Positions 1 to 61,800 of a stretch of DNA of 64,000 nucleotides are shown piece by piece. The stretch's first letter is position 1, and each line of letters opens with the position of its first letter. The position numbers were made by a program, and so were the translations under genes. This DNA is from an uncultured Actinomycetes bacterium (lineage in GTDB: Bacteria; Actinomycetota; Thermoleophilia; UBA2241). The DNA lies in assembly GCA_963725665.1 (NCBI GenBank), contig CAVRZA010000004.1, forward strand, positions 576,001 through 640,000. The letters are read 5' to 3'. The notes below the pieces were generated by a model that searched no databases, was not told where the DNA came from, and was given only the letters and a program-made list of their open reading frames with translations.

Positions 1-203
1 ACGACATTCACCACGATGATACGCCCCATACGTTGGCCACGTCGCCTCGACGGACCGGGATGAGCTGAACCGGTCAGCAGCTCTTTCCCTCCGCGGCGGG
101 AGTTGGTTGACTAGCGCTACCGACCACCGGCATGGAGCGTGCCCTGCGGCACGGACCGGAGGAACGCTCCACAGCATGTACGACCCGTGAGAAGGAGGCG
201 CGC

Positions 204-1670
204 GTGAAACGGAACCGCCACGCCGGGCGCAGGCGCAGCGGCGGCCTGGGCCTCGACGTCTTCACGCCCGAGGAGCTCGAGGACATCCACCTGAGCACAC
301 TGCAGGTCCTCGAGCACACGGGGGTGCTCGTCGACGACGACGAGGCGATGGACTACTTCGCGGCGGCCGGCTGCCACGTCGACCGCGACGAAAGGATCGT
401 CAAGATCTCGCCGCACGTGGTCGAGGAGGCGATCGCCTCGGCTCCGGCCAGCATCCTCCTCGCGGGGCGCGACCCGAAGAACGATGTCGTCCTCGAATCG
501 AACCGCGTCGGCTTCTGCACCTTCGGCGAGGGCATCATGATCGTCGATCCGTACAGCGGCGAGCTGCGGGAACCGCTCAAGAAGGACGTCGGCGACGCCG
601 CCAAGCTGGCCGACGCGCTGGACGATATCGACACGTTCGAGATCGCCATCGGCGCCAAGGACGCGCCTGGCGAGACGGCCTCTATCCACAACTTCGAGGC
701 TGCCCTCGCGAACACGACGAAGTGCATCGGCGCCGGCACGCTCTCGACGGAGGAGACGGAGGCCGTCATCGACATGGCCGCCGTGGTAGCCGGCGGGCGC
801 GAGAGCTTACGCGAGCGGCCGATCGTCTACTTGGGCGTCTGCCCGGTGAGCCCCCTCAAGCTCACCAAGGAGGTCTGCGAGGTCATCATCTCGGCCGCCA
901 AAGCCGGCCTGCCCGACAACATCCTCTCGATGGCGATGAGCGGCGGCTCGGCCCCGGCCAACCTCGCCGGCACGCTCGTCACGCACAACGCCGAGGTCTT
1001 GAGCGGCATCACTCTGGCGCAGCTTGTCCGCCGCGGCACGCCGGTGATCTACGGCAGCTCCACGACGGCCCTCGACCTGCGCTTCGCAACGGCCTCGGTC
1101 GGCTCACCGGAGTGCGCCATGGTCAACGCCGGCGTGGCCTGTCTCGCGCGTCAGTACCGGCTGCCGAGCTACGTTGCCGGTGCGTAGGGGGATGCGAAGC
1201 TCAGTGACGCCCAGACCGGTCACGAGAAGACACTGACCGGACTGCTACCGGCGTTGGCAGGCGCCAACCTCCTGTACGGTTCGGGGATGATCGAGTCGGG
1301 AGTCACCTTCGATTTCGGGCAGCTCGTTATGGACAACGAGTTCGCGCGCATGATCAAGTTCGTGGTCGGAGGCATCAGGGTCGACGACGAGACGCTGTCG
1401 GTCGACGTCATCGCGCAGGTAGGCGCCTTCGGGGACTTCCTGAGTCACGAGGACACCTACAAGAACATGCGCATCCAGTCGCAGAGCAAGCTGATCGACC
1501 GGCGCGTGCGCGAGGACTGGGAGCAGGCCGGCTCGACCGACCTCTACACGAGGGCCTGCGCCGAAGCGCGCCGGATCCTCGAGTCGCACGAGGTCGAGCG
1601 GCTCGCCGACGACGTCACCGCGGAGGTCCGCGAGATCGTCGCACGGGCCGACCGCGCGCTCACGGCGTAG
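204..1670 (+). CDS. mttB: Trimethylamine:corrinoid methyltransferase (MttB family), 488 aa if the in-frame TAG at 1185-1187 is read as pyrrolysine (residue 328)
   Basis: ORFs 132..1187 and 1254..1670 share a frame and join as SYVAGA-[TAG]-GDAKLSDAQTGHEKTLTGLLPALAGANLLYGSGM, matching the Pyl site of MttB. RBS AAGGAGG at 192-198 precedes GTG 204. Confidence 0.92.
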
Positions 1671-1808
1671 GAGGGAGAGCGTCAGCGGAGGGCAGAACGC
1701 CAGAAGGCCAAGGCGCTGACTGGGGCCCCATGGGCGTGAGCGGGGCGCAGCCCCAGGAGCTTGTGAGGCGGCGGGGCGGGTAAGCGCCGCGCTAGTCGAG
1801 GCTGAGGG

Positions 1809-59918: not shown

Positions 59919-60272
59919 CTAGTCGGTGTCGAGCGGCGCGCCGCGCTGGCGCTTCTTCTGCGCGCGGCGCGCCTTCTCGACGAGGCGCCGCTCGACGGCT
60001 GCCGTAGAGGGTCGCGTCGGCCGCCTGGGCGGCGCCTCGTAGGCCAGAGTCTCGAGGCGTTCGCGCAGGCGGCGCAGGCAGGTGGTCTTGTTCTGGAGCT
60101 GGCTCCGCCGGGCGCGGCAGGTGACGACGATGCCAGTGGGGCGGTGGCGCAGGCGGACGCCGCTGTCGGTCACGTTCTGGTGCTGGCCTCCTGGTCCGCC
60201 GGAGCGAAACGTCTCGACGTCACACTGCGCCAGGAGCTCGTCGTCGGACTCGGATATCTCTTCCGCAGTCAT
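59919..60272 (-). CDS. Stand-alone GGQ peptidyl-tRNA hydrolase, ArfB-like ribosome rescue factor (117 aa)
   Basis: RSGGPGGQHQN, RSQLQNK and the basic tail RRPTRPS...ERRLVEK...KK..R. Confidence 0.85.
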   Translation of the reverse strand: MTAEEISESDDELLAQCDVETFRSGGPGGQHQNVTDSGVRLRHRPTGIVVTCRARRSQLQNKTTCLRRLRERLETLAYEAPPRRPTRPSTAAVERRLVEKARRAQKKRQRGAPLDTD

Positions 60273-60354
60273 CCTGCCTCGGAGTCTTCCACCCACCGTC
60301 GAGGCCCGCAAGCACGCCACCCTTGAGCTGGGTGCACTGCGCGCTCCTTGGGGG

Positions 60355-60360
60355 TACACT
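60355..60360 (+). promoter_or_regulatory. -10 element TACACT predicting a TSS at 60367
   Basis: TANNNT box followed by 6 nt and then the first base of the hairpin; same spacing as five leaderless starts in this window. Confidence 0.6.
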
Positions 60361-60366
60361 TGCGGC

Positions 60367-60417
60367 GGACCCGCGAGCGAGGAAGGCCCTTCGGGGCTGT
60401 AAAGCTCACGGGTCTTT
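60367..60417 (+). ncRNA. Candidate small RNA mimicking 16S rRNA helix 16
   Basis: GGACCCG-C-GAGC-GAGGAA-GGCCC-TTCG-GGGCT-GTAAA-GCTC-A-CGGGTCT-TT: the h16 internal loop and cUUCGg cap on a non-rRNA closing stem. Confidence 0.65.
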
Positions 60418-60512
60418 GTCGTTCGCTGAAAGTCCTCTCCGTTCCACGACGGGCTCCCAGGTGCGCCGGCCGGTCCTCACCGTTCGCCCGCCGACGCTCG
60501 TCGCCTGGCCGC

Positions 60513-60586
60513 CACCGAGTCATCGGGGCGGGCCCTCGTCAGTCGCCGTCACCGACTCATCGGAACGAGCCCTCGTCAGCCGGCCT
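60513..60586. repeat. Imperfect 37-bp tandem duplication over the NAD-kinase stop codon
   Basis: CACCGAGTCATCGGGGCGGGCCCTCGTCAGTCGCCGT vs CACCGACTCATCGGAACGAGCCCTCGTCAGCCGGCCT. Confidence 0.7.
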
Positions 60587-61748
60587 CGGTCGAGACGGGG
60601 TAGATGGTGCTCTCGTTGAGGTTCGTCACGACCCTGCGATAGCCGCACAGCTCGGCGTTGAGATCGTCGTCCCCGGTGTCGACCAGGAGTGGGCGCTCCT
60701 CGAGCGCGAGCAGCTTCTGATGGGTCGCTACGACCACGATGTTGTCCAGGCCGACCTGGCGCAGCACGCGCGGGCTGATCTGCTGGTTGCCGCGTCCGAA
60801 GATGTGACCCTGGCCGCCGATGGCCGTCACGACGACGGTCGCCGGCCGCTCGGCCGTGAGCCGCAAGAGGTCGTTCTCGCTGACGTCGCTCGCGACCACC
60901 GCGCGCTCGCCCACCACGTCGACGCCTAGCAACGTGTTGGGCAGCTCCAGGATGCGCATGATGCCGCGCGTCGTCGTGCCGGGTCCGATGACATAGAGCC
61001 GGCCCGGCTGCATGCCGTTGACGACCTCGCTGGCGATACCCTCCAGGGCTACGGCGTCGCTTCCGCCGGCGCCGGCCTTGGCGCTCTGCAGGAGGTTGCG
61101 CTGGTAGGGCACGCGCAGGTAGCCGTAGAGGCGCGCCGAGACCCGATCCTCTCTGAAGGCCTCCTCATCGATGTCCATGACCTCGGCCTCACGCAGCTCT
61201 ACGCCGCGCGCCTCAGGCCTGAAGAAGAGAGCGGCGAGGTCGCCGGCCGCCGCCGGCGTGGTCGCATAGACGGCGGAGTGGATCTTGACCCCCGCCGGGA
61301 TGCCCAGCGTGGCGATCTCTGTGCCGATGGCGTCGTAGATGTTGCGCGCGGTGCCGTCGCCGCCGGCGAAGAGCAGCAGGTCGACACCGATGTCGCGCAT
61401 CGCGCGGGCCGCGTTGACGGTGTCCTCGGCGGTCGTGGCCGGCGCGCCGTCGGGCAGCGGAGCGCCCCACGGCGCGCCGATGACGCTGTCGAGGACGCGG
61501 GGCGTGAAGCCGGCAGCGACGGCCTCGTCGGCGCCCATCTCGCCGGGGCAGGTCACGAGGTCGATGTCGCCGGCCAGGCCGGCGAGGCGCGCGAGGGCCT
61601 GCTGGGCGCGGCGCGGGCTCTCCCGCGCCGCGCCCAGCTCGAGCGCGCGCCGCAAGATCTCGATGCCGTCGCTTCCCTTGAGCCCGACGCGGCCGCCGAC
61701 CCCCGCTACGGGGTTGACTATCAGGCCCAGCGTCTTGCGTTGCGTCAT
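60576..61748 (-). CDS. ATP-NAD kinase family protein (AcoX-related)
   Basis: IVNPVAGVGGRVGLKGSDG, GGDGTAR, GVKIHS and GRGNQQ. Confidence 0.9.
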   Translation of the reverse strand: MTQRKTLGLIVNPVAGVGGRVGLKGSDGIEILRRALELGAARESPRRAQQALARLAGLAGDIDLVTCPGEMGADEAVAAGFTPRVLDSVIGAPWGAPLPDGAPATTAEDTVNAARAMRDIGVDLLLFAGGDGTARNIYDAIGTEIATLGIPAGVKIHSAVYATTPAAAGDLAALFFRPEARGVELREAEVMDIDEEAFREDRVSARLYGYLRVPYQRNLLQSAKAGAGGSDAVALEGIASEVVNGMQPGRLYVIGPGTTTRGIMRILELPNTLLGVDVVGERAVVASDVSENDLLRLTAERPATVVVTAIGGQGHIFGRGNQQISPRVLRQVGLDNIVVVATHQKLLALEERPLLVDTGDDDLNAELCGYRRVVTNLNESTIYPVSTEAG

Positions 61749-61800
61749 CTCTGCTTCAGGGTCGTGGCGTCTCGGAGTAGCAGGGCGGGCGCAAGGCGGG

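Follow-up and report, generated by a model that had tools for sequence, protein, structure and literature searches.

Mimics of rRNA and the uS4 Site

Imitation of ribosomal RNA (rRNA) by a regulatory RNA is, to our knowledge, found almost solely in cis leaders of ribosomal-protein genes. Free-standing RNAs that mimic the nucleic-acid target of a protein are exemplified by CsrB/RsmZ and 6S RNA, for which binding and phenotypes have been shown. Here we describe a hairpin resembling helix 16 (h16) of 16S rRNA, found on the + strand of a 64,000-nt stretch of DNA from an uncultured Actinomycetes bacterium (Thermoleophilia, UBA2241; contig CAVRZA010000004.1, positions 576,001 to 640,000), hereafter called the window. 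Like CsrB/RsmZ and 6S RNA, the element is a free-standing mimic that could act in trans; in contrast to them, its binding and its transcription are putative.

The target of such a mimic would be ribosomal protein uS4 (S4). According to the available part of Bellur and Woodson (2009; PMC2665224), S4 binds a minimal RNA consisting of h3, h4, h16, h17, and h18; binding tolerates truncation of h17 at 446-487 and removal of the 530 loop, and truncation of h16 or deletion of h3/h4 is "disastrous" for it. The same part of that study reports direct contacts of S4 with the 16S bases 404-406 and 437, single substitutions at 405 or 437 abolishing detectable binding in vitro.

The S4 leaders of Firmicutes and Fusobacteria, as described in section 10 of PMC7247131, are similar to the element in imitating the rRNA site of a ribosomal protein; the Firmicutes leader carries a GUAA sequence that imitates rRNA and presumably corresponds to the h16 loop. 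These leaders, however, act in cis before rpsD or the alpha operon, whereas the element has no co-directional gene, rpsD is encoded elsewhere, and no Rfam leader is matched.

A Copy of Helix 16 outside Any rRNA Gene

The element comprises 49 bases (60367-60415) of the + strand within a 302-nt intergenic spacer. A first-pass annotation, made from the letters alone, had described its sequence and fold (GAGC, GAGGAA, the inner stem, UUCG, GUAAA, and the closing helix), and both are exactly as given there. The parts of the locus are:

60352-60357, + strand: GGGTAC box, candidate -10 element of the SigB/stress-sigma type, overlapping TACACT at 60355-60360
60367-60373 with 60409-60415, + strand: closing helix of 7 pairs, including one G-U pair (G60367-U60415)
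C60374 and A60408, + strand: single unpaired bases between the closing helix and the h16 copy
60375-60407, + strand: h16 copy, the only non-rRNA match in the genome to the h16 model described below
60375-78 with 60404-07, + strand: outer stem GAGC/GCTC of 4 pairs, identical in the 16S of the host and of the family
60379-84, + strand: 5' loop GAGGAA, opposite GTAAA
60385-89 with 60394-98, + strand: inner stem of 5 pairs
60390-93, + strand: tetraloop TTCG
60399-403, + strand: 3' loop GTAAA
60416-60427, + strand: T-rich tail, candidate termination signal, directly 3' of the closing helix
60416-60474, + strand: possible faint relic of an h18 arm and of a 3' closing strand, suggested (and no more) by a nonsignificant alignment to the sister-RNA model described below

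The element is a genuine look-alike of exactly one rRNA helix and lies outside any rRNA gene. To represent h16 we used a covariance model (R1) built from 11 different h16 segments, all taken from true 16S of the class, with the element left out. This model recognizes the element, in sequence and structure, at 28.8 bits (E ~0.0016 genome-wide; 3.7-Mb genome, 7.4 Mb on both strands), which ranks between the genome's own 16S at 59.5 bits and the next best match at 15.6. A BLASTN search of the spacer against the genome aligned 33 nt to the organism's own 16S with 88% identity (E 0.012) and stopped there, with no continuation into neighboring helices or an rRNA operon. The single 16S gene of the genome (L001, G000:C4:390660-392209) is on the same contig, 245 kb from the element. 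The statement in the first-pass annotation that the flanks are not rRNA thus holds: identity to the host 16S does not extend convincingly beyond the one helix, which is enclosed by a closing helix of its own. Searching 60200-60650 against Rfam release 15 at E values up to 10 likewise returned nothing, including from the small-subunit (SSU) rRNA and S4 leader models; at gathering thresholds the whole window contains only PYLIS_3, and nothing at the element.

Compared with h16 of the host, the outer stem, the tetraloop, and the 3' loop are identical, and five of the six 5' loop positions agree. The differences amount to an A>G change in the 5' loop, an additional C-G pair in the inner stem, and the replacement of one G-U pair by G-C, so that all changes of the inner stem preserve or strengthen pairing; GAGGAA, the loop that results, is shared by one true 16S of the class (L050). 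The extra C-G pair had been noted in the first-pass annotation and is present relative to the host as well. Its further point, that the stems differ in a compensatory manner, arose because the comparison was made with Escherichia coli; against the host's own 16S it does not apply, given the identical outer stem and changes confined to the inner one.

The + strand folds at -36.1 kcal/mol (z -3.7), a value equaled by none of 200 shuffles, and the minus strand at -28.4 kcal/mol (z -3.3). Two G-U pairs and 7.7 kcal/mol favor the + strand fold; the G60367-U60415 pair would become an A-C mismatch if read on the minus strand. A terminator and promoter scan made no call at the element, the hairpin being missed by a simple terminator search because its stem is broken by internal loops. 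Five of the first eight bases after the closing helix are T, and there is no + strand gene upstream that would need termination. Contigs from the one RNA sequencing run (X20) cover 60569-60823 and 61038-61074 of the window, outside the element, and are silent on its expression.

A Family of Free-Standing 16S-Junction Mimics in Related Genomes

When R1 was run on 88 other genomes of the family, extra matches of 41-55 bits appeared outside the 16S genes. In combination with a second model (R2), which represents the whole of these sister RNAs and was seeded with eight sequences of genus g2, they identify free-standing 16S-like RNAs of ~140 nt in 10 of the 88 relatives: 8 of 12 genomes of g2, the single genome of g11, and 1 of the 54 genomes of g10. 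Free-standing mimics of 16S, as the first-pass annotation had proposed, are therefore a reality in this bacterial family. Their loci are:

L204-L211, ~1880-2190 in each: mini-16S RNA
L222, 1501-1654: mini-16S RNA
L223, 1501-1660: mini-16S RNA

With R2, the eight seeds score 120-158 bits, the g11 member 94.8, and the g10 member 79.7, compared with 19-30 for true 16S genes. Rfam at gathering thresholds assigns no family to the eight g2 loci. One g2 RNA is aligned by the bacterial SSU model of Rfam over model positions 401-535 only, with distal h17 and h18 deleted, at 18.1 bits; the g11 RNA (L222, 1525-1629) reaches 65.6 bits over the same positions only, which is above the gathering threshold of that model, and annotation pipelines may in consequence label such genes as partial 16S rRNA.

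The distribution of the RNAs is narrow. R2 found no member in the 125 genomes outside family f1 among the 151 scanned for the class, and in 150 genomes of the phylum it matched family f19 alone, in six genomes at ~41 bits; three of these loci were checked and are true 16S. Two weak R1 matches of ~21 bits (G007 and G025:C5) were also set aside, as both lie in what by eye is coding-looking DNA. Viral contigs scanned for the h16 core of the sister RNAs gave 0 matches. Among literature titles we found no description of a free-standing 16S-junction mimic, which is not proof that none exists.

As a family of free-standing mimics of the 16S junction, these sister RNAs have good structural support, and Rfam has no model for them. 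RNAalifold predicts from the eight g2 sequences a four-way junction with 45 pairs, of which 11 show compensatory changes: a closing helix of 17 pairs, an h16 arm that does not vary, a short hairpin where h17 would be, and an arm for h18, the last being retained nearly complete in the g10 and g11 RNAs. In the alignment of all ten sequences, which leans towards the model because it was fitted to R2, 97.7% of cells pair, and 13 pairs are changed on both sides; shuffles give 5.6 +/- 1.7 (none of 500 reaches 13) and slid controls 1-3. All ten RNAs read G-U-G (404-406) before h16 and U (437) after it. Their outer h16 stem is GCGG/CCGC, a type that is likewise present in 16S genes from other families of the class. 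A canonical terminator hairpin follows three of the g2 RNAs. In one locus (L207, G019) the 3' closing-strand motif recurs by eye ~30 nt downstream.

None of the sister RNAs has ribosomal neighbors or is antisense to a conserved partner. Those of g2 lie between an ABC-2 transporter gene and a convergent gene without a Pfam family, that of g10 by genes for a methyltransferase and a HAD hydrolase, and that of g11 by a phosphoesterase and a hemerythrin-domain gene. In the genome studied here (G000) the two genes that neighbor the g2 RNA are on different contigs, and neither is adjoined by a relic of the RNA.

The architecture of these RNAs resembles the five-way-junction (5WJ) RNA of the uS4 binding work, in the available part of PMC2665224, in that h16 is complete and the junction is kept, together with a helix that closes it. 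The parts found dispensable in that work are the ones shortened here: distal h17 and, in g2, also the 530 loop. The 5WJ RNA differs in being artificial, ~200 nt long, and provided with separate h3 and h4, whereas the sister RNAs are natural, ~140 nt long, and have a single closing helix. By this analogy, the sister RNAs would be expected to bind uS4.

A Shared Promoter-Like Box

The GGGTAC box lies 10 nt upstream of the first paired base of the element, G60367. The same GGGTA, followed by T, C, or G, is found 10-11 nt upstream of the closing helix in all ten sister RNAs. On either strand of the 302-nt spacer this is the sole GGGTA, and the overlapping TACACT is the sole TANNNT. With a genome-wide GGGTA frequency of 3.8e-4 per strand position, agreement in spacing would be expected by chance with a probability of ~8e-4 (2 x 3.8e-4).

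The box fits a stress-sigma-type promoter element, for which the consensus in the available part of PMC8346170 is GGG(A/T)A(A/T) at -10 for SigB-type factors with a weakly conserved -35; a SigB-like factor would then be the one acting here. The first-pass annotation had taken TACACT as the -10 box. It was right that a promoter-like box stands at a suitable distance, but we prefer the stress-sigma reading because the final T of the housekeeping TANNNT is absent from four of the ten sister boxes.

The Element as a Possible Reduced Member of the Family

A promoter-like box, the plan of a closing helix, the h16 arm, and a U-rich end are common to the element and the sister RNAs. We tentatively favor the reading that the element is a small unit on the + strand, similar in kind to them, trimmed to the h16 arm and possibly decaying. 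Such a unit of ~50-60 nt would consist of the GGGTAC box, its own closing helix, the h16 copy, and the U-rich tail, and would represent an h16-only offshoot of a mini-16S lineage that otherwise combines a closing helix in place of h3/h4 with full h16, truncated h17, and h18. Its transcript, if one is made, would act as a partial decoy of low affinity, offering the internal loop and tetraloop of h16 to the face of uS4 that binds this helix; the element may already be heading towards loss. What we infer is that the unit is transcribed, which sigma factor serves it, that it binds uS4, and that it descends from the sister lineage and not from a separate copying of 16S.

Several observations weigh against this reading. 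In its structure the element is without the h17 stub, the h18 arm, and the long closing helix of the sister RNAs, and its own closing helix shares no sequence with theirs; R2 aligns to 60357-60474 at 14.2 bits, which is not significant (E 0.08 for the window and two loci). Where the sister RNAs have GUG before and U after the h16 arm, it reads G-C-G and A. Its outer stem GAGC/GCTC is that of the present 16S of the family, as opposed to GCGG/CCGC in the sister RNAs, so the element may be a separate, younger copy of 16S; descent by truncation, patching from 16S, and such a younger copy are each possible on the sequences at hand.

The element is moreover a singleton in all collections searched. 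BLASTN of 60340-60440 against 60 relatives gave short chance matches only (at most 33.7 bits). A search of 301 class genomes for the loop pattern yielded no homolog: apart from 16S matches there were ~9 non-16S matches without pairing stems (three read with their flanks, the rest by eye), and the matches in G025 and G019 are sister RNAs. Four pattern matches resembling 16S, in which the inner stem is GGGTC, have flanks that identify them as true 16S. The 19-nt inner stem and loop, looked for as an exact sequence in 185,579 species genomes, gave four chance matches, none in a 16S and none with the 5' loop; with no 16S among them, no foreign 16S carrying this inner stem emerged as a source. A metagenome search with the protein of the neighboring NAD-kinase-like gene gave 497 confirmed stretches, from which 80 loci (69% identity at best) were retained; all 80 are without the element.

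The sequencing runs with the best overlap share at most 0.25 of the sampled words. Of the runs X1, X2, X3, and X20 (RNA), X1 alone has a contig that reaches the element, and just one such contig. It (431 nt, 2.67x) matches 60506-60836 in the adjacent gene (331 nt, eight differences, ~97.6% identity) and 60390-60422 with one difference, skipping 60423-60505; left of 60390 it continues for 67 letters that do not match the window and that end in GGGTA. By eye, and from this single low-depth contig, the X1 strain appears to have lost ~33 nt (60357-60389) by deletion, and with them the 5' half of the hairpin, which argues that the element is dispensable. The 83-nt stretch of spacer (60423-60505) is absent as well, 60422 being joined to 60506. 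The spacer varies by insertions and deletions between close strains.

The uS4 site itself provides the last of these points. At the positions equivalent to 405 and 437, which are highlighted in the available part of PMC2665224, the element carries C and A, and it shares with the 5WJ RNA only the h16 arm; with altered contact bases and no junction, its binding of uS4 would be weak at best, and a strong uS4 decoy seems unlikely. Some affinity could be retained by an RNA consisting of h16 only, as the S4 leaders imitate the rRNA GUAA (section 10 of PMC7247131).

Neighboring Genes

The element lies between two genes:

59919-60273, minus strand: arfB-like gene, RF-1 domain with GGQ motif (Pfam RF-1, E 4.9e-24), divergent from the element
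60576-61751, minus strand: NAD-kinase-family gene (Pfam NAD_kinase N- and C-terminal domains), its 3' end facing the element

Both being on the minus strand, the hairpin is situated in the spacer of two co-directional genes and reads against them. The first-pass annotation correctly saw no credible + strand gene downstream of the element; its account of the orientations needs the amendment that both flanking genes share the minus strand.

Orthologs of arfB occur in all 56 family genomes searched. Their upstream regions, read by eye in 28 relatives, have different neighbors and contain no such hairpin, and neither R1 nor R2 gave an extra match adjoining arfB in the 88 relatives. In genus g7 (L074, L077, L078), the NAD-kinase-like gene and arfB are neighbors but convergent, compared with their tandem arrangement in the window (59919-61751). 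Judged by gene order, arfB is inverted relative to its neighbor in one of the two lineages, and the spacer is thus a rearrangement point. In genus g10 (L075, L081, L084, L085, L087-L089, L091), a membrane-protein gene runs divergently from arfB; its ATG follows a TAGCCT box within a few bases and looks by eye like a leaderless start. Also seen by eye in the window is a 28-nt imperfect direct repeat (60515-60542 and 60553-60580), with the second copy overlapping the NAD-kinase-like gene at its stop codon.

The single rpsD gene is on another contig (G000:C2, from position 113081) in the row rpsM-rpsK-rpsD-rpoA, with a gap of 13 nt before it. An autoregulatory S4 leader was rejected as a candidate for the element: rpsD is on that other contig, no + strand gene follows the hairpin, and no Rfam leader is matched.

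Alternative Explanations

Besides a trimmed member of the mini-16S lineage, the element could be a functionless relic, either the remnant of a decaying mini-16S gene or an rDNA-derived patch at a rearranged spacer, unselected and perhaps untranscribed. Its occurrence as a singleton, the X1 contig, which seems to be missing both the 5' half of the hairpin and another 83 nt of spacer, the rearrangement point at which the element lies, the altered key contact positions for uS4 (available part of PMC2665224), and a likeness to the rest of a sister RNA downstream that is no more than faint are all in line with this. However, three inner-stem changes keep or improve pairing, including the matched insertion of a C and a G, and the loops are intact save for the one A>G that is itself found in a true 16S; a new 7-pair helix, GGGTAC at the spacing of the family, and a U-rich tail would together be unexpected under neutral decay. 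We consider a relic somewhat unlikely, if well worth keeping in mind. Much less probable is a chance hairpin in G+C-rich DNA. The sequence similarity taken by itself is modest (E 0.012), but the R1 score stands far above the best background in 7.4 Mb and the ~9 loop-pattern matches in 301 genomes are all without pairing stems, which makes this explanation barely credible.

Action on the minus strand or in cis-antisense is another option, the hairpin serving as a processing or stability stem in an NAD-kinase-arfB cotranscript or its + strand RNA pairing to tune arfB. The two genes share the minus strand with 302 nt between them, and that strand of the spacer has neither TANNNT nor GGGTA, which makes read-through a probable requirement for arfB; the minus-strand fold is likewise a good one. 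Yet the likeness to h16 is lost there, mismatches replace two G-U pairs, and there is no U-tract behind the hairpin; the 28 arfB upstream regions are without such an element, and the sister RNAs show no antisense partner, all of which leaves this explanation improbable. The version advanced in the first-pass annotation was a trans-acting decoy coupled to the arfB-like rescue gene or, alternatively, an orphaned S4 leader. The element does adjoin arfB divergently in this genome, and h16 is at the uS4 site (available part of PMC2665224), but the adjacency to arfB is unique to this genome, the sister RNAs lie elsewhere, and rpsD stands inside its ribosomal-protein row with no Rfam S4 leader match at the hairpin even at E values up to 10. 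We regard this version as highly improbable: of the interpretation given there, the h16 look-alike, the promoter-like box, and RNAs of this kind in the family have stood, and compensatory stems, coupling to arfB, and the S4 leader have not.

A bolder extension of the reading that we favor is that the family has undescribed mini 5WJ RNAs, free-standing and driven by a stress sigma factor, which act in trans on uS4, with the 49-nt hairpin as the minimal active member. We would call this extension speculative and, as a whole, unlikely to hold. If true, uS4 could be titrated or stored under stress, which would tune translation of the alpha operon, rRNA antitermination, or 30S assembly. The novelty would lie in the imitation of rRNA for a ribosomal protein by a stand-alone RNA and not by a leader: the sister RNAs stand behind a stress-type box, distant from any ribosomal gene, and these natural RNAs shorten the docking junction of uS4 nearly as biochemists did to find the minimal site. 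Should they bind uS4 in trans, they would represent a new buffering of a primary assembly protein that regulates its own operon. The element itself is lone, reduced, and possibly decaying; it may show how far such a mimic can shrink or how it decays, and its value lies in having led to the sister RNA family.

A Separate Observation in the Window

Far from the element, an open frame at 132-1739 (+ strand) contains an in-frame TAG, directly after which Rfam PYLIS_3 matches at 1185-1284 (67 bits). Read without a family search, this frame is a candidate trimethylamine-methyltransferase-like gene (mttB-type), probably pyrrolysine-containing, in a genome of 68% G+C.

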